From positions 1 to 12,110 of the IMG/VR virus record IMGVR_UViG_2778261454_000009: DNA of 12,110 nucleotides, one strand, 5' to 3'. Shown here one piece after another: positions 2,835 through 9,876 of this stretch. Numbering within the stretch: the first letter of the stretch is position 1; each line of letters begins with the position of its first letter. A model generated the notes under the pieces. It saw nothing but the letters and a program-made list of their open reading frames with translations. It ran no database searches and was not told where the DNA came from. This stretch comes from a virus. Taxonomy: Duplodnaviria > Heunggongvirae > Uroviricota > Caudoviricetes. Position numbers and translations under genes: made by a program.

Positions 2835-5800
2835 TTATGCCTGAGTACGCAGCGCTTCAAGGCGGCGCAGGTCGAAGTCGTTCAGTTCGTCGGTGTAGTC
2901 AGCAGTGATTGGCGCTGGCCATTCACCTGTGTCGAATCCGGTTGCGATATTGCGCATCGCTTTGCGGTACTCGAGCATACCCAGCTCCAGTAGTTCAGCG
3001 GATGCCTCGATGATGGCGATCCAGTGGTAGTTCTCGTCTTTGTTGACGAAAATCCAGAAGAACTGGTCCAATGCTGCGGTCTCGCAATACATGGCGGCGC
3101 TCAGGTGGTAATCACGGTCGATGATTTCCCGGTGCAGTTTGGCGCGCAAACCTTCCTGTTTAATGTTCCACATGCTGATGGTTTTCAGGTCGGCACCGAT
3201 GCGAACGCCGTCCAGGTCGATCTCCAGATCAGGACGAACGCGGACTTCCAGACCGGTTTCGTCGTCAAAGCCAAAGTAGCTCACCTCAACAGCGCGGCTC
3301 GGATGCTGAAGCAGCATCCCGGCGGTTGGGTGTGCCAGTAATGCCGACTGAATAGCCAGCGCGGTGCTCAGTTGCTGACGGGTGACCAGCACTTTCCCTT
3401 GCGGATTCTCACGCCAGGCATCCAGCAGTTCGTCGGCAACGACGGCGTCCGGATTAACAGACTTCACGGTCTGGATCAGATCCGCTTTGGTACCGGACAC
3501 TTTCAGTGGTTGGGGCTTCTGCGCCTCCTGTGCAACCAAGTCAGGATTGATGATTGCCAGTTGCTCGAGTAACGCATCACGGCTACCGCTGGTTTTCACC
3601 TGTGCTGGCAGAGTGGCGTTGTATTCCTTGATGCAGGCTTTCATCGCCGCTGCGGTCTGCTTCTGGTCCGCTTCGATACGCTGATACTCTTCAGGAAGCG
3701 ACATATAGCTCTGACCAGTTTCCTCGACTGAACCACCCAGCGGCACCTGTGCTGGCAGAGTGGCGTTGTATTCTTCGAGCAAGGCTTTGATCTCATCTGC
3801 ACTCAGCAGCGCTTGCAGACCTGCGTTGTAATCATCGATAAACGCGCGGATCGTTGCCGTCGTGGTGAATGCGCCTTCCGGAATTACCGGTTCAACGCTG
3901 AATTCGGCATCCAGCAGTTCGGGCTGCAGCGCCAGCGCATGCACCAGGTTTCCCATGTCGAGCACCGGTGAGCGTTCTTTGACGATTGTCTTGGCGACGT
4001 GGCGCGCATTAAAGTACATCAGGCTAACTCGGGCATCTTTCACCTGCGTGGAGCTGATACCGTTGGCGGCGTGGTAAACCTCGTTCGGCAAACCTTCATA
4101 ACGACCTGGCTCGAAGTAAGCGGGATACACGGCTACCGGTTCGTCAGTTTGTACTTCTGGTTCGTTTTGTGCCGCAACTGGCTCAATTTGGTTTACAGAA
4201 TCGCTATTTTGGGCGACAGAATCCGCATTCTGGTTTACATCGGCTTGCTGGCTGGTATGTGACTCTTCACCAGTTTCCAGACTGCTTTCGCTTGACTGCA
4301 CTTCATCACCAGCATGTTTTTCATCACTGACAGTTTCTTCCATCTGCACATGGCTGGTGGTGTCCTCATTAACTGGTGAACGGTCATCTGTTTGTGTTTG
4401 TTGATCGCCCATCAGGCCATCAATGGAGAATACGCCGTTGCCCATGTTGGCGATTTGTGGCTGTTTAGCATCTGTTTTCTGCTCTGCAGCGACCTGCTCA
4501 TTAACCTCATTTTCCCAGCTGACGTCCGGCGCATGACCAGCATCAGCCAGCGTTTCTTCTGAGGGGTTTGAGTGGTCATTTTCGGTTAGATTGGCATTGA
4601 TATATGCCCGCAACCGCCCAGGAAAGTTAACCAATTCGGATGATGTGCCGCGGATGAGTGCAAAGATGGCTGCGCGTGAATAGTCCAGGATGCCAGCGGT
4701 TTTGCGCAGCGCCTCAGACCATTCGCTGAACGGACTTTCTTTCTTGCTGACAATCTCTTTAGCGCGACGGTAGACCCCACCAGGTATGTCGTAGATATTG
4801 AAATCCATTGGCAAGGTGGCCAGCGCAATTTCAACATCCAAAGTGTCCAGTGTGTGGACATAGTCGGTATTACGATCGGTCTTATTTCCACCGCCAGCAT
4901 TGGTTTTGACGTCAGTACGTTGAATCTGCGCAACGCGGTTACCTTTCTGCCATTCCTTGGCCAGCAGGCCACGGTCGATGTAATCAGTGTTGAACCACAC
5001 AGTCAGGAACTGGATAACTGTTGCCAGCTCCGGTTTTTTACCGTCGACAGGGAAGACTTTCTTAACAGCATTCACGACTTTATGAATATCGTGCTCAATG
5101 GCTTTTTTGAATGCTTCCACATTCTCAGCAGCCAGCAGCAGGTTCTGGATGTACGTGTCATCAGTGTCCATCTCAAGGCGGACAATCTCGTTTTTCTGCC
5201 CAGCGTCGATGTGATAGAGATATTCACCATCACCGATGAACTGAGCCAGTACGCGCTGACGGAATGGCAGGGTGGCTACGACGATCAGGTTCGGCTGATC
5301 TGGCTGCTGAGATTGTTCTTCGGGACCGACTTCATCACCAACGCTGGTGGTTTCAGTTTTGAGCAGAGGAAACTTTCCACTGCGCCAGTCTTCAACCAGT
5401 TGATTGCGATCACCTGCTTCTGCGTTCACCCAGTCAGACATGAAAGCAGCGATCACTTCAGGTTCATGCTCTTCACCCTGTTCGAAGATGTCTTTAATCG
5501 CCTGAATCATTTTCCACTCAGCATTAAGACTGAGTTCGCCAACTTCAGGAACATCATTTTTAACCTGCAGCAAGTTCTGGAGATAGGTATTGCTTTCGTC
5601 CAGTGACATTTCGCTGGCAGCCAACTGCTGCTCTTTAGTGACGTGGGTTTGGTATTTATCGTTCATCAGATGGACGGCAAAGCGGACCGCTGGAGTACGG
5701 TTTTCAACCGGGACAATTTCGGACGCAGTCGCATCTTCAACGATTACGGTCGGAGTAGGTGTGTAGGGGGCGTCAACGGAACCAGTAGACACACCAGCGG

Positions 5801-6074
5801 CTTTTGGCAGCCAGGTGCGCCCATCGTCCTGAAGCTCGTAGCGATCACACCAGGTAAAATCAACTTCACCTTCTTTCGGCAGGCCGTCGACAACTGGGAA
5901 ATCAGTGCGAATCGGTTTGGCGTAGTCCTTACCCCGACCTGTTTCGATACCTGCATCTTCCAGCGCAACATCCAGCATCAGATTGGCGCGAGCCTCGGTT
6001 TTAGCAGTGAACCAGACCACTGCATCTTGCTTTCCGGATTTCTGAGTGGCTTTAACCACATTAAAGAATTCCAT
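2835..6074 (-). CDS. recE: Exodeoxyribonuclease VIII (RecE-like), enlarged form with acidic low-complexity linker
   Basis: 1079-aa ORF. N-terminal TDFPVVDGLPKEGEVDFTWCDRYEL and central KVFPVDGK...WFNTDYIDRGLLAKEWQKGNRVAQIQRT...NAGGGNKTDR...LDYSRA blocks match my recollection of E. coli Rac RecE ([51 protein letters not shown]...NAGGGNLTDR). GAGGAT RBS before ATG at 6074. Confidence 0.85.
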   Translation of the reverse strand: MEFFNVVKATQKSGKQDAVVWFTAKTEARANLMLDVALEDAGIETGRGKDYAKPIRTDFPVVDGLPKEGEVDFTWCDRYELQDDGRTWLPKAAGVSTGSVDAPYTPTPTVIVEDATASEIVPVENRTPAVRFAVHLMNDKYQTHVTKEQQLAASEMSLDESNTYLQNLLQVKNDVPEVGELSLNAEWKMIQAIKDIFEQGEEHEPEVIAAFMSDWVNAEAGDRNQLVEDWRSGKFPLLKTETTSVGDEVGPEEQSQQPDQPNLIVVATLPFRQRVLAQFIGDGEYLYHIDAGQKNEIVRLEMDTDDTYIQNLLLAAENVEAFKKAIEHDIHKVVNAVKKVFPVDGKKPELATVIQFLTVWFNTDYIDRGLLAKEWQKGNRVAQIQRTDVKTNAGGGNKTDRNTDYVHTLDTLDVEIALATLPMDFNIYDIPGGVYRRAKEIVSKKESPFSEWSEALRKTAGILDYSRAAIFALIRGTSSELVNFPGRLRAYINANLTENDHSNPSEETLADAGHAPDVSWENEVNEQVAAEQKTDAKQPQIANMGNGVFSIDGLMGDQQTQTDDRSPVNEDTTSHVQMEETVSDEKHAGDEVQSSESSLETGEESHTSQQADVNQNADSVAQNSDSVNQIEPVAAQNEPEVQTDEPVAVYPAYFEPGRYEGLPNEVYHAANGISSTQVKDARVSLMYFNARHVAKTIVKERSPVLDMGNLVHALALQPELLDAEFSVEPVIPEGAFTTTATIRAFIDDYNAGLQALLSADEIKALLEEYNATLPAQVPLGGSVEETGQSYMSLPEEYQRIEADQKQTAAAMKACIKEYNATLPAQVKTSGSRDALLEQLAIINPDLVAQEAQKPQPLKVSGTKADLIQTVKSVNPDAVVADELLDAWRENPQGKVLVTRQQLSTALAIQSALLAHPTAGMLLQHPSRAVEVSYFGFDDETGLEVRVRPDLEIDLDGVRIGADLKTISMWNIKQEGLRAKLHREIIDRDYHLSAAMYCETAALDQFFWIFVNKDENYHWIAIIEASAELLELGMLEYRKAMRNIATGFDTGEWPAPITADYTDELNDFDLRRLEALRTQA

Positions 6075-6213
6075 GTGAGATCCTCATTTTTGGGTGTTAG
6101 AATCCCCGGACCATTGATAGCGCCCATTGGGTTAACTTTGGTTTTAATGTTGTTTCCGGTGTAACTTTGGTCGGTACCACCGGACGTAGATCCCGCCTTG
6201 CGCGGGTTTTACG

Positions 6214-6593: not shown

Positions 6594-6845
6594 GATGTTC
6601 TCCAGTTTTTCTGAGTGAACTTCGCTGGTGGTGCCGCGGCGCTGATCTTCACGGTTGAGCGTTTTAACTCTGCAATTCACCACCGCGAAGCTCACTCTGT
6701 GCTTTGCCCTTGTCGCCAGGCTGGCGGAACGTTTCAAACCTACTGCGCGTTAATCTCACCACCTCATTCCGGTCTTCGTATGCCCCGGACGGCTACTTCG
6801 TGGGCTCCATGCCTGGGTGGTTCGTGGTGCGTCTTGGTGATTGCA

Positions 6846-6874
6846 TATTAAGCCTGAGACTTAAATCATGTCAA
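6846..6874 (-). promoter_or_regulatory. PL-like sigma70 promoter for the leftward operon
   Basis: Minus strand reads TTGACA (6874..6869), a 17-nt spacer, then TTAATA (6851..6846). The spacer and -10 contain the operator palindrome also found at the rightward promoter. Confidence 0.5.
6848..6864. promoter_or_regulatory. Putative repressor operator, 17-bp near-palindrome (OL-like)
   Basis: TTAAGCCTGAGACTTAA is the exact reverse complement of 9062-9078 and is itself a 14/17 palindrome. An additional half-site TCAGGCTTAATT lies at 6902-6913. Confidence 0.45.
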
Positions 6875-7015
6875 GCTCCAGGCGAAATGTGATTGTAAGT
6901 TTCAGGCTTAATTGTGATGTTCACCGAATTGCAGGCAAAAAAAATCCCGACGCTAAGGTCGAGATCGGGGACTTCGTGGCTGGGTGTTGGCGGCTGAGAT
7001 GGTGGGTGAGGGTGT

Positions 7016-7045
7016 AAAAAACCCGGCGCTGTGGCCGGGTTTTTT
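7016..7045. terminator. Bidirectional rho-independent terminator
   Basis: AAAAAA-CCCGGC-gctgtg-GCCGGG-TTTTTT: a 6-7 bp GC stem with a 6-nt loop, flanked by an A-run and a T-run. It starts 2 nt after the stop of the 34-aa ORF and separates the AT-rich unit from the PL-like promoter. Confidence 0.65.
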
Positions 7046-7047
7046 CA

Positions 7048-7152
7048 TTACTGCTGGTTAAATCCTTTCGGCGAGTGCTGCTGTTCTTTATTACCAAATT
7101 TTTGATTTACAATGATTTTATAAGCGTTATTGAGAGCTTGCTTTATAGACAT
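7048..7152 (-). CDS. Small ORF (34 aa) co-transcribed downstream of the HslV-like gene
   Basis: Hand translation MSIKQALNNAYKIIVNQKFGNKEQQHSPKGFNQQ. AAGGAG lies 6 nt upstream of the ATG at 7152, 17 nt after the upstream gene's stop. It ends 2 nt before the terminator and is AT-rich like its neighbour. Short ORFs are prone to false calls. Confidence 0.35.
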   Translation of the reverse strand: MSIKQALNNAYKIIVNQKFGNKEQQHSPKGFNQQ

Positions 7153-7169
7153 TAATATCTCCTTATGTG

Positions 7170-8474
7170 TTATTGACGATTAAAGTAGTTAGAGTTTAGC
7201 TCTTTAGGGAAGTAGTGTTTACGATTTACCCAAACAAATCCATCAACTTTTGATATCACAGCGACATCAACAGGCCCACCGACAGTTTCATAATCATGTG
7301 ATACTTTTCTTTTGAATGCAGTGATGTTCACTAATGATTCGGCCATATACGCAAGATCTGCCTTCCCAAGTGATTGCAACATCGATATCATTTTATTTGT
7401 ATGGTTATTAACAATATAGCTTTCAAGTTTAGTATCGTGATCTTGTAAAAGTACGTTTTTGAGTTCCTCAATTTCACTGGAGAAGTGATTGGCTAGTACT
7501 CCATTGTTCATTGCAGGGAAAATATTGCTAGAAACATAATGATTAAGCCGATCAAAAACTTCCTCTGTAAGAGTTCTGTTAAAATTAATGATGTTAGGGT
7601 TGCACCCATCAATGAAAGTTACTACTTCATCTTCTTGAGCAAATGGTATAACAAACCCCATATTGGTTACCTCATTATGGGATTTATTATCAATATTATG
7701 GATCATCAATTTGTTTTTAAAAATGCCGTAGATATGAAGAGTGCAAATGGAAGGGTAATATTCTTCCTCTCCATAACCTGTTATAACAATCCCTGAATAT
7801 GTACGACTAGCATGGACTTTGAAAATTAAATAAGTGGAATATAATATGACTTTTTCCATAAGCTCTTGCTGTATATTTTCACAGTTATCAAGAACAATAA
7901 TTGATGAAATGTATGGCGATATTAAATCTTGTATATATGCTAAAGCATCATTAAACTCTTCTGTATCAAACCCTTCGAAAAAGAGATTATTCCTTAAGAT
8001 TCCTATCTCTAAATCAAAGGCTTGCTTAACTATGTTTTGAAAAATAACATTGTCGAGTTCAACGGCGGGGTTCATTGTTAAATAGTTTACTACATTATTA
8101 TCATTAATGTATCTCATCAAACCTTTGAGGTTATCAACAACAAGGTTTATAACGCAAGCCTCTCTCATTTCATTTGTTATAAGGTCTGAGTTACCATTGA
8201 TGAATTTTACAAAGTCATTAACATATTCTTTAATGGTAGGGAAACTAGTTTTCCCCAATTGTTTTCTATAGGATTTAATTATAAGTTCCCACGGTGCGCC
8301 ACCCAGTGTCGCATTATTATAAATCATGATCCCCACGGGATGGTGTTTAGATAGTTCGAATAGTTTTTCCGCACTATTATTTATTTTTACTAATCTATTA
8401 TGCTCTGTGGTGACTGCAGAGTCAGCAGCAAGGGCGATTCCAGTATTATTTATTACAACAATCTCAGCTGTCAT
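7170..8474 (-). CDS. HslV/20S-proteasome-beta-like N-terminal-nucleophile hydrolase homolog with a large insertion
   Basis: 434-aa product from ATG at 8474 (the track's longer form from 8573 has no RBS). The ORF is about 33% GC. N-terminus MTAEIVVINNTGIALAADSAVT...NNSAEKLFEL parallels HslV [24 protein letters not shown]...KKVRRL and 20S beta [21 protein letters not shown]...KNCSKIHFI, with Thr directly after Met, Asp at 17 and Lys near 33-36. Mid-protein IVITGYGEEEYYPSICTLHIYG and C-terminal DYETVGGPVDVAVISKVDGFVWV resemble the corresponding T1-family strands. The GSG loop is not recognisable. Comparison is from memory, not a search. Confidence 0.6.
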   Translation of the reverse strand: MTAEIVVINNTGIALAADSAVTTEHNRLVKINNSAEKLFELSKHHPVGIMIYNNATLGGAPWELIIKSYRKQLGKTSFPTIKEYVNDFVKFINGNSDLITNEMREACVINLVVDNLKGLMRYINDNNVVNYLTMNPAVELDNVIFQNIVKQAFDLEIGILRNNLFFEGFDTEEFNDALAYIQDLISPYISSIIVLDNCENIQQELMEKVILYSTYLIFKVHASRTYSGIVITGYGEEEYYPSICTLHIYGIFKNKLMIHNIDNKSHNEVTNMGFVIPFAQEDEVVTFIDGCNPNIINFNRTLTEEVFDRLNHYVSSNIFPAMNNGVLANHFSSEIEELKNVLLQDHDTKLESYIVNNHTNKMISMLQSLGKADLAYMAESLVNITAFKRKVSHDYETVGGPVDVAVISKVDGFVWVNRKHYFPKELNSNYFNRQ

Positions 8475-8502
8475 TGCAAAACATCCCGTGTAGTAGTGAT
8501 AA

Positions 8503-8531
8503 ATATTAATTAAATTGATAGTTTTTTTCAA
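8503..8531 (-). promoter_or_regulatory. Candidate sigma70 promoter for the HslV-like unit
   Basis: Minus strand reads TTGAAA (8531..8526), a 17-nt spacer, then TAATAT (8508..8503), about 30 nt upstream of the ATG at 8474. Confidence 0.45.
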
Positions 8532-8615
8532 TCTAACATAAATGGCGGAATCACCCCCCAGTAAAGACATCATTGTCTCATGGGAACTAAAAATTCAGGA
8601 CAAACCTAAAGCGAT

Positions 8616-9002
8616 TCAGTCCCCCTGCGAGCGAATCCGCCCCTTCATGTACTTCTCATACAGCTCATCCAGTTCCTTAAGACGTATCGAAAAGATGCGG
8701 AGCATGTTCTGTTGCTCTTCTTCTGGAAGCTGGCGGTAGAGCTCAAGCAGGCGCTGTTCGTCCGGCTTAAGTCCGTCCTTCTCGCCGACATCCTCACCGA
8801 GTAACCAAGGCACAGACACGCCAGCTGCGTCAGCGACAGCGAGAGCTGATTTCTTGCTGATCACGCCTTTTTTAAACCAGCCGTTCACAGACTGCGGGGT
8901 TACCCCAGCAACCCTGGCCATATCGGATTTGGTCATACCGCGCCCGTTCAGCTCTGAAAGGCGTTCGACAAGTATCGGATTAAGTACGGTTTTCTCTTTC
9001 AT
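8616..9002 (-). CDS. CI-like immunity repressor, XRE-family HTH transcriptional regulator
   Basis: 128-aa ORF with a canonical HTH (MTKSDMARVAGVTPQSVNGWFKKG) and a helical C-terminal region. It is divergent from the Cro-like gene, with shared operators in the intergenic region. No obvious S24 peptidase domain, as in RacR/DicA-type repressors. Confidence 0.8.
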   Translation of the reverse strand: MKEKTVLNPILVERLSELNGRGMTKSDMARVAGVTPQSVNGWFKKGVISKKSALAVADAAGVSVPWLLGEDVGEKDGLKPDEQRLLELYRQLPEEEQQNMLRIFSIRLKELDELYEKYMKGRIRSQGD

Positions 9003-9050
9003 GGTTAGAAGAATAAGCCTTTTGCTTAAACTTGAAAATTCGCCTCAGGC

Positions 9051-9080
9051 TTGACAATAAATTAAGTCTCAGGCTTAATT
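9051..9080 (+). promoter_or_regulatory. PR-like sigma70 promoter for the rightward operon
   Basis: TTGACA (9051-9056), a 17-19 nt spacer, then a TTAATT/TAATTT -10-like element (9075-9081), followed by GGAG and the ATG at 9107. This is a mirror-image copy of the PL-like cassette. Confidence 0.5.
9062..9078. promoter_or_regulatory. Putative repressor operator, 17-bp near-palindrome (OR-like)
   Basis: TTAAGTCTCAGGCTTAA lies between the -35 and -10 of the PR-like promoter and is the exact reverse complement of 6848-6864. A related half-site CTCAGGCTTG at 9044-9053 overlaps the -35. Confidence 0.45.
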
Positions 9081-9106
9081 TGATTGTATTCAAATCGGAG
9101 ACAACG

Positions 9107-9325
9107 ATGAACGGGTTAACGAAAGCCATTAAGTCCGCTGGCACTGCAACAAATCTCGCAACCATGCTGGGCATCAAGCCGATGTCGGTCAGCCGCTGGA
9201 AAAACCGGTACCAGGGCATGGTGCCTGCTGATCGGGTCCTTCAAATCTACGCGGCTACCGGCGTAACTCCACACGAGCTGCGCCCTGATCTCTATCCAAA
9301 CCCAAGTGACGGTTTACCAAAGTAA
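9107..9325 (+). CDS. Cro/YdaS-like small HTH regulator
   Basis: 72-aa product from ATG at 9107 with GGAG 6 nt upstream (the track's longer ORF from 9032 lacks an RBS). HTH ATMLGIKPMSVSRWKNR and the HELRPD motif are typical of the YdaS family. It is divergent from the repressor. Confidence 0.7.
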   Translation: MNGLTKAIKSAGTATNLATMLGIKPMSVSRWKNRYQGMVPADRVLQIYAATGVTPHELRPDLYPNPSDGLPK

Positions 9326-9336
9326 GGAATGTAACT

Positions 9337-9876
9337 ATGCAATCACTTACGTATCAACAGAGTAACGGGTTCATTTCAGCAGCGCTGATAAATCGCGCTC
9401 AACCAAAACCGGGCGTCAGTTGTGGTGCCCTCCGTGATGCTGTTCGCGCCTGGTCAGCAGTAGCCGGGCAGGACGTTGTAACGGCCCTGATCGTTGAAGA
9501 GTGGCACCGGATAGGTGGCGAAGGTATCGACTTTCCGGCAGATCACAGCCGTGCCCGGCAGAAGCTGTTCCGCTTCCTGGATAACCATTTCAACAGCGAA
9601 CGGTACCGCGAGAACGTCCGCCAGCTGACGCCGGCAATCCTCGCTGTCCTGCCGATTGAATACCGCAATCGTCTGCTACCAGAAGACAACGTAATGGCTC
9701 GTCTGGCAAGGCTGGAGAAGGAAACCAGCGAAGCGAAGATTGCTGTCGCAATGGATGCGCCACGTCATCAGAAGCTGAAAGAGTTGAGCGAGGGGATCGT
9801 GGAGATGTATCGCGTTGACCCTGGGTTAACCGGTCCGTTGATGGAAATGGTGCAGATTATGCTGGGGGCTATATGA
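9337..9876 (+). CDS. YdaT-like protein (cII-like regulator / putative toxin YdaT family)
   Basis: 179-aa ORF 11 nt after the Cro-like gene, with AAGGAA RBS. The motif LTPAILAVLPIEYRNRL resembles the conserved PAILAILP segment I recall from Rac YdaT. Gene order matches ydaS-ydaT. Confidence 0.6.
   Translation: MQSLTYQQSNGFISAALINRAQPKPGVSCGALRDAVRAWSAVAGQDVVTALIVEEWHRIGGEGIDFPADHSRARQKLFRFLDNHFNSERYRENVRQLTPAILAVLPIEYRNRLLPEDNVMARLARLEKETSEAKIAVAMDAPRHQKLKELSEGIVEMYRVDPGLTGPLMEMVQIMLGAI

Follow-up and report, generated by a model that had tools for sequence, protein, structure and literature searches.

Mirror-image operator and promoter cassettes as probable OL and OR regions of a Rac/Gifsy-like lambdoid prophage

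Introduction

A 12,110-nt stretch of DNA from a tailed-phage record (IMG/VR IMGVR_UViG_2778261454_000009), here called the window, carries a promoter-like segment on the minus strand that recurs, in mirror image, on the plus strand at the other side of a repressor-like gene. The question raised by this locus is whether the two segments are the left and right operators of one repressor, as an earlier note made from the sequence had proposed, and, if so, how many sites each of them holds, which promoters they would control and which protein would bind them. Our reading is that 6845–6913 comprises OL1–3 and PL, and 9013–9079 comprises OR1–3, PR and, on the other strand, PRM, within a Rac/Gifsy-like lambdoid immunity region; on sequence comparison we give it a probability of about 0.85. 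The lambdoid switch design is already known, and what is described here is ordinary lambda logic.

Results and Discussion

Genomic context of the cassettes

The window is most likely a Rac/Gifsy-like lambdoid prophage of E. coli. Its segment 6700–9400 matches E. coli chromosomes at 99.7–100%, the prophage adjoins kch in strain Z22-7, and the immunity region was found, at a query coverage of at least 80%, in 13 of 5426 complete E. coli genomes. The genes and sites of the prophage run in the order int; recT and a recE-like gene; ydaE and kil (phrog_294); PL/OL; two terminators; a 467-aa gene; the repressor gene; OR; cro; a cII-like gene; and O and P. The first gene downstream of PL is kil, while to the right of OR a Cro protein of the YdaS family is followed by a CII-like protein of the YdaT family, and then by O and P. 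The features surrounding the cassettes are the following:

8616–9002, minus: repressor, 128 aa, N-terminal five-helix HTH plus C-terminal helical hairpin, without S24 peptidase domain
9107–9325, plus: Cro analogue, 72 aa, YdaS family (Pfam YdaS_toxin and P22_Cro)
7170–8573, minus: 467-aa gene between the repressor gene and the terminators, phrog_5990 (function unknown)
6943–7045: two terminator hairpins, 6966–6943 (minus) and 7016–7045 (bidirectional), from a terminator scan and inverted repeat I9

The Cro analogue is presumed to share the operators of the repressor. The 467-aa gene has a G+C content of 31–36% versus about 52% in its flanks, and its sole match was phrog_5990, with none in Pfam or PADLOC. 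It is a 'moron', a foreign gene inserted between the repressor gene and PL, and, being 100% identical in the ET881 prophage, which has another operator type, it moves as a cassette. The predicted terminators at 6943–7045 would end the repressor-moron transcript before OL.

Some minor observations concern the same surroundings. The 467-aa gene occupies the position of lambda rexAB. Inside it, at 7869–7884, lies a LexA-box-like CTGT-N8-ACAG motif, CTGTATATTTTCACAG; two matches to CTGT-N8-ACAG occur in the whole 18.7-kb locus, versus 0.24 expected, and in AT-rich DNA they may be due to chance. The recE-like gene of the window (2835–6074, minus) is 150 nt shorter than the copy of strain Z22-7 (locus L001, 3986–7375), so that, despite the 100% identity over 6700–9400, the window comes from a related, not identical, prophage. 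Between the recE-like gene and ydaE (6116–6212, plus) there is a sub-threshold Rfam match to the Hfq-binding sRNA isrB (28.6 bits versus a gathering score of 35, E = 0.077).

Sequence and statistics of the mirror image

On the minus strand, 6847–6886 reads CGCCTGGAGC-TTGACA-TGAT-TTAAGTCTCAGGCTTAAT, and on the plus strand, 9041–9080 reads CGCCTCAGGC-TTGACA-ATAAA-TTAAGTCTCAGGCTTAAT-T. The letters given for both cassettes in the earlier note were correct when re-read on either strand, and an inverted-repeat search of the window returned the same pairs (I1, I4 and I2). By our own count on the local alignment, 35 of 41 aligned columns are identical between the left and the right cassette. Local alignment of the reverse complement of 6800–6960 with the repressor-cro intergenic region (9003–9106) gave a score of 33, to be compared with 9.4 ± 1.7 (maximum 20) for dinucleotide shuffles, none of which reached 33 in 2000 trials, and with 14 as the next-best score for any other 161-nt piece of the window. 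Likewise, the pattern TTAAGYCTSAGRCTTAA, with up to 3 mismatches, was matched three times in the window (6848, 6895 and 9062) versus 0.06 expected, and three matches were obtained in 0 of 200 shuffles.

The near-identity claimed for the cassettes was thus borne out by their alignment, but not its extent. Direct reading and local alignment within the window indicate that minus strand 6845–6913 mirrors plus strand 9013–9079; since the alignment is 69 nt long and spans O3-O2-O1, the mirror image is bigger than the approximately 40 nt reported earlier.

Operators, site by site

In relaxed scans, three 17-bp sites were found on each side, with centres 23 and 24 bp apart on the left and 24 and 25 bp apart on the right:

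OL1, 6848–6864: perfect 17-bp operator TTAAGCCTGAGACTTAA, 0 mismatches, covering the PL spacer and -10
OL2, 6871–6887: degenerate operator, minus strand TTTCGCCTGGAGCTTGA, 4 mismatches in 14 specified positions, with its good half-site overlapping the PL -35
OL3, 6895–6911: 17-bp operator GTAAGTTTCAGGCTTAA, 2 mismatches, 15 of 17 palindrome consensus positions
OR1, 9062–9078: perfect 17-bp operator TTAAGTCTCAGGCTTAA, covering the PR spacer and -10
OR2, 9038–9054: degenerate operator ATTCGCCTCAGGCTTGA, 4 mismatches, overlapping the PR -35 and abutting the candidate PRM -35, with its centre 24 bp from that of OR1
OR3, 9013–9029: operator ATAAGCCTTTTGCTTAA, 2 mismatches in 14 specified positions, over the spacer of the candidate PRM

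OL1 equals OR1 letter for letter, read on the opposite strand, and an own-type site occupies the OL1 position in every related locus. The description of a 17-bp near-palindrome that overlaps the spacer and the -10 on both sides was accurate, and corresponds to the two perfect O1 sites. What had been taken for an extra half-site at 6902–6913 is a true match, but not half a site: it is the right half of the full OL3. The proposal of OL/OR logic agreed with every comparative test run, with three operators per side instead of one and a half.

The O2 sites deserve a separate comment. Each has one good half-site (TCAAGCC), overlapping the -35, and, as only 10 of 14 specified positions match, O2 is called an operator on account of its position and of its conservation in type A (the immunity type of the window, see below). 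The OL2 centre is 23 bp from that of OL1 and 24 bp from that of OL3, and an equivalent site is present in all six type-A loci; OR2 is conserved in type-A loci as well. Concerning spacing, OL3 and OL1 stand 46–47 bp apart, start to start, across all four immunity types, and the distances to the repressor ATG are about 74–76 nt for OR1, about 50 nt for OR2 and about 26–27 nt for OR3 in nearly all of the 23 related genome loci, with the exception of L022, where the OR sites are shifted by about 23 nt. Beyond the OL and OR sites, the window contains no further match with up to 2 mismatches. Subtraction of site centres places OL2 and OR2 2167 bp apart.

A direct repeat (D3) also touches both cassettes. 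It contains TGATTGTA and lies on the plus strand at 6879–6897 and 9070–9088, TGATTGTA itself being at 6888–6897 and 9080–9088. Its positions are non-equivalent: between OL2 and OL3 on the left, and right after the PR -10 on the right. A role as a YdaT site was considered and rejected, the published site being another sequence located at the ydaS end (PMC9986795). Given this difference and the non-equivalent promoter positions, the repeat is treated as chance or unexplained.

Promoters

Three promoters can be assigned to the cassettes, the third as a candidate:

PL, 6845–6874, minus: -35 TTGACA (6874–6869); -10 CTTAAT (6852–6847, 16-nt spacer) or TAATAT (6850–6845, 18-nt spacer)
PR, 9051–9079, plus: -35 TTGACA (9051–9056), 17-nt spacer, -10 CTTAAT (9074–9079)
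Candidate PRM, 9010–9038, minus: -35 TTTTCA (9038–9033), -10 TATTCT (9015–9010), read directly

PL was found by promoter scan in its 18-nt spacer form (TTGACA, TAATAT; 6874–6845, minus), with 10 of 12 matches; its -10 is ambiguous between the 16- and the 18-nt spacer, and transcription would start near 6840. PR was not detected by the consensus promoter scan of the window, because its weak -10, CTTAAT, lacks A at position 2; a GGAG at 9097–9100 precedes the cro ATG at 9107. In both cassettes TTGACA is followed, after 4–5 nt, by O1, the promoter-distal end of which supplies the -10, and this TTGAC-N4/5-O1 layout is common to all the immunity types.

The candidate PRM has no Shine-Dalgarno sequence, and its end lies 7 nt ahead of the repressor ATG at 9002, which would make the repressor mRNA leaderless. 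In types A–D a -10-like hexamer is found 6–7 nt before the repressor ATG, again without Shine-Dalgarno, and the mRNA of PaaR2, the repressor of prophage CP-933P, is leaderless according to 5′ RACE (PMC8630535). From these positions we infer that PRM has the geometry of lambda PRM and gives a leaderless repressor mRNA. The placement of OR3 and OR2 for autoregulation of this promoter had been overlooked in the earlier note, while its OL/OR reading as such is supported.

A structured leader downstream of PL

The DNA that follows OL1 encodes a further conserved element:

6690–6846, minus: structured PL leader, core stem-loops at about 6759–6820 (alignment, RNAalifold, covariance model)

This leader, about 155 nt long, follows immediately upon OL1 in each locus of all four immunity types, which speaks for transcription starting just past OL1. 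RNAalifold predicts an outer stem (CCACC/GGTGG) around two hairpins, plus a downstream hairpin, and compensatory changes occur in 8 of 17 predicted pairs. The covariance model found one copy per locus, always after OL1, together with weak matches after PL of CP-933P (22 bits) and to the left of racR in the Rac prophage of K-12 (25 bits); the CP-933P promoter, PL933P, is active, as shown experimentally (PMC8630535). The leader may be a processive-antitermination element or another kind of leader element. No Rfam family was assigned to it in a scan of the window, and the covariance model gave no second copy after PR in the related loci; a pair of put-type antiterminators (putL/putR) is not supported, since each locus has a single copy. 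Unlike lambda, the window phage has no visible N gene.

Immunity types and co-variation of operators with DNA-binding domains

The cassettes were compared among 29 loci, namely 23 genome loci (from a scan of one genome per species, with encoded relatives 61–97% identical), three phage records, two E. coli prophages and the window. The loci sort into four groups by HTH sequence, each with its own palindrome:

Type A (the window's type): TTAAGYC-N3-GRCTTAA
Type B: RTAAAYC-N3-GRTTTAY
Type C: GTAAAKY-N3-RMTTTAC
Type D: YTAAACW-N3-WGTTTAR

In most loci an own-type OL3/OL1 pair, 46–47 bp apart and with a TTGAC -35 in between, was found past the repressor gene, at a distance of 85 bp to 2.4 kb; the mismatch limit of the simple scan let through a single OL site, or none, in several loci. 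The type-A pattern (up to 2 mismatches in 14 positions) gave 9 OR and 12 OL matches in the six type-A loci, none elsewhere in them, and no match in the 23 loci of the three other types. The type B and C patterns overlap because their half-sites are similar. A megablast of a type-D locus against E. coli genomes gave no match.

A change of type affects the repressor HTH, the Cro HTH, OR and OL jointly. The palindrome type tracks the HTH of the 8616–9002 repressor over the 29 related loci, in line with the earlier suggestion that the operator marks an immunity type. The HTH region of Cro also changes with type, its C-terminal 22 residues being invariant or nearly so. This, together with the fact that YdaS footprints the same region of CP-933P as PaaR2, could be taken to mean that the palindromes serve mainly the Cro-like YdaS protein, or the CII-like YdaT protein, and not the 128-aa repressor. 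We consider this very improbable: sharing of operators is normal in lambdoid phages and does not exclude the repressor, the repressor HTH covaries with the palindromes just as tightly, including loci with a different C-terminal subtype, and the known YdaT site, TTGATT-N6-AATCAA, differs from them and lies at the ydaS end (PMC9986795).

The most direct evidence comes from the prophage of E. coli ET881 (locus L027). It is 100% identical to the window over 6956–8655 (terminators, 467-aa gene and 3′ end of the repressor gene) and 94–98% identical to the left of about 6820, but exactly two patches are of type B, 6845–6955 (OL) and 8656–9300 (repressor HTH, OR and cro). Such a double swap suggests that the left cassette belongs functionally with the repressor/OR/cro module and not with the gene in between. 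More generally, the same operators occur with different morons, and the same moron with different operators.

These comparisons also bear on a less functional explanation, that a duplication or gene conversion left the mirror image behind as a neutral remnant, or else that the sites serve the 467-aa gene product. Mosaic recombination is indeed frequent in these prophages, but the paired arrangement is kept in four types with differing operator sequences, and the positions of the sites are fixed relative to -35 and -10, so that we find a neutral remnant scarcely credible. The same applies to the 467-aa product: ET881 has the identical gene with type-B operators, on which ground this candidate was rejected, and SEN34, SW-37, L002 and L003 have type-A operators at varying distances from the repressor gene, SEN34 having a different gene there.

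The repressor and its family

Only HTH_3 passed the Pfam cut-off in the 128-aa repressor. The AlphaFold model (pLDDT 86.8) shows a five-helix HTH (residues 9–67), a linker and a helical hairpin (80–127). By Foldseek the HTH resembles those of P22 c2, 434 repressor and SinR, and the hairpin is kept across all the immunity types. A PDB sequence search with the repressor returned spurious ubiquitin matches, due to a KDGLKPDEQRL-like stretch, and weak matches to the 434-repressor HTH. Homologues with 83–95% identity occur in Klebsiella, Enterobacter, Citrobacter and Salmonella, and others in phages SEN34, SW-37, PHB10 and mEp237, the last one being annotated as similar to a regulator of S. Typhimurium 14028S.

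The family appears to be that of GfoR, the repressor of Gifsy-1. The cloning primer for gfoR (PMC3121763) encodes the residues KEKTHQIN, with which the type-D repressors of L013–15 begin, and these are 64–71% identical to the window protein; the comparison with GfoR itself is thus one of an 8-residue, primer-encoded N-terminus. The family probably includes also GfhR, described in the same article as 66% similar to GfoR. There, GfoR and GfhR are reported to be small, uncleaved repressors, whose inactivation is due to the antirepressors GfoA and GfhA, themselves under LexA control. In Gifsy-1, GfoR, a dimer by its elution, represses the operons of recE and of the cII-like gene, and fusions to these genes in Gifsy prophages are induced by mitomycin C in an antirepressor-dependent manner (PMC3121763).

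Concerning the antirepressor, the Z22-7 prophage (L001), which is identical to the window over 6700–9400, has an SOS-type module at 13690–14431, to the right of the replication genes and about 0.3–1 kb past the right end of the window. It contains a terminator hairpin, a LexA box (TACTGTATAAAAACACAGTA, 13794–13813), a dinI homologue (13832–14065) and an ORF (14183–14431) for 82 aa (VSDSALQ... ...VTPPSD), the ends of which match the gfoA antirepressor primers of PMC3121763. Judged by these components, it is a Gifsy-type SOS-induction module.

In BLASTP, PaaR2 aligned with the window repressor over 43 C-terminal residues only (21% identity, E = 9e-4), and hhalign gave a probability of 77% over 71 columns, in the C-terminal part only, so that the homology is marginal and does not cover the whole protein. 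The window repressor would work like PaaR2 but is not clearly a member of its family. RacR, with an hhalign probability of 94%, matched only 34 HTH residues.

Control scheme and comparison with known systems

The best-supported control scheme follows from the anatomy of the locus, from co-variation and from two studied relatives, the Gifsy phages (PMC3121763) and CP-933P (PMC8630535). A dimer of the 128-aa HTH repressor would sit, with two-fold symmetry, on the 17-bp TTAAGYC-N3-GRCTTAA sites. Occupancy of O1 and O2 would block RNA polymerase at PL and PR and thereby shut off kil-recET, to the left, and cro-cII-O-P, to the right. With OR2 abutting the -35 of PRM and OR3 over its spacer, the repressor would regulate its own gene first positively and then negatively, as suggested by this geometry and by CP-933P. 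The YdaS-like Cro would compete for the same sites with the opposite preference. Induction probably proceeds without repressor cleavage, probably through a GfoA-like antirepressor under LexA control, the gene for which was seen right of the replication genes in the 100%-matching strain.

The earlier note had spoken of a single dimeric repressor, and we also infer a dimer, from the symmetry of the sites and by analogy with GfoR. An extension of the main explanation, contradicting only that expression, is that a higher-order form of the repressor (tetramer or octamer) bridges OL and OR through a DNA loop of about 2.2 kb, instead of binding as independent dimers. The three sites per side with a spacing of about 24 bp, as in lambda, the 2167 bp between OL2 and OR2, the C-terminal hairpin conserved in all immunity types, and the octamerisation of PaaR2 in solution (PMC8630535) are consistent with looping. 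On the other side, the homology of PaaR2 is marginal, GfoR, the nearest relative among the studied repressors, behaves as a dimer on elution (PMC3121763), and the repressor gene-OL distance varies among relatives between 85 bp and 2.4 kb, so that the size of such a loop is not conserved. We regard looping as possible, while leaning towards independent dimers.

Gifsy-1 and Gifsy-3 resemble the window (PMC3121763) in having a small HTH repressor without cleavage domain, recE in the left operon and a cII-like gene in the right one. A further common point is the group formed by a LexA box, a dinI homologue and a GfoA-like ORF, which the matching E. coli strain has on the right side of its replication genes. 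In GfoR and GfhR the C-terminal domain is conserved while the HTH varies between heteroimmune phages, as occurs in the window family. The operators differ, TTAAGYC-N3-GRCTTAA in the window versus TTAAACA-N3-TGTTTAA in GfoR-type loci, and so do the hosts, E. coli with the prophage adjoining kch versus Salmonella. No OL/OR mapping for GfoR or GfhR appears in the searched sections of that article.

CP-933P, from E. coli O157:H7, is like the window in having OR1–3, OL1–3, PR, PRM and PL, with a small leaderless repressor divergent from ydaS-ydaT (PMC8630535). There, binding of PaaR2 and YdaS to the operators and repression of both PR and PL have been shown, in a study that used EMSA, footprints, gfp fusions and 5′ RACE (PMC8630535). 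Unlike in the window, its Cro protein shows no detectable similarity to the Cro of the window, its operators (consensus GTTTAGTAA, four 18-bp inverted repeats; PMC8630535) differ from the 17-bp type-A sites, and its moron is a toxin-antitoxin pair instead of the 467-aa gene.

Lambda shares with the window three partly symmetric 17-bp operators per side with centres about 24 bp apart, O1/O2 over the early promoter, OR3 over PRM and a leaderless repressor mRNA (predicted in the window), as well as a moron and a terminator between cI and PL, and an OL-OR distance of about 2.2 kb. Unlike the lambda repressor, that of the window lacks an S24 autocleavage domain, and the two show no detectable sequence similarity outside the HTH fold; induction is probably by antirepressor. 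The Rac prophage of K-12 has, like the window, recET, kil, ydaE and members of the YdaS and YdaT families, and RacR matches in the HTH helices but differs in having 158 aa and a different C-terminal part; its operators and leader do not align with those of the window, except for the 25-bit leader match.

Type-A specificity and its relation to type B

The type-A operator sequence was in no paper found by a full-text literature search. This sequence, and the four-substitution/two-base difference between types A and B, are what is modestly new here. The half-sites of A and B differ at only two positions (TTAAGYC versus RTAAAYC), so heteroimmunity between A and B is putative. Within the folded HTH, the only complete A/B separators are the conservative substitutions L18I, S26A, S38A and V56I. 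It is somewhat doubtful, but worth proposing from these alignments, that the window represents an uncharacterised type-A specificity of the Gifsy repressor family, set apart from type B by a minimal change in recognition. Should Ser26 and Ser38 suffice to determine the specificity, nature would have provided a phage repressor with a switch of two residues and two bases, and the ET881 and window prophages would be an isogenic pair for testing it.

With the operator set, promoters and repressor putatively assigned for one immunity type of a prophage family widespread in Enterobacteriaceae, superinfection immunity and cross-repression between co-resident prophages can be predicted, and the four operator/HTH pairs on one scaffold form a natural series for the evolution of repressor specificity. 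The understanding of lambdoid switches is unchanged.

A last observation concerns L022, from Phytobacter sp. V91 (4880–5000). Its type-A repressor lacks the N-terminal arm, starting at MTLVERL, and its gene is not leaderless, the start codon being preceded by about 25 nt of leader that include a weak Shine-Dalgarno sequence. Its operators are still of type A, which indicates that the N-terminal arm is dispensable for type-A operators.
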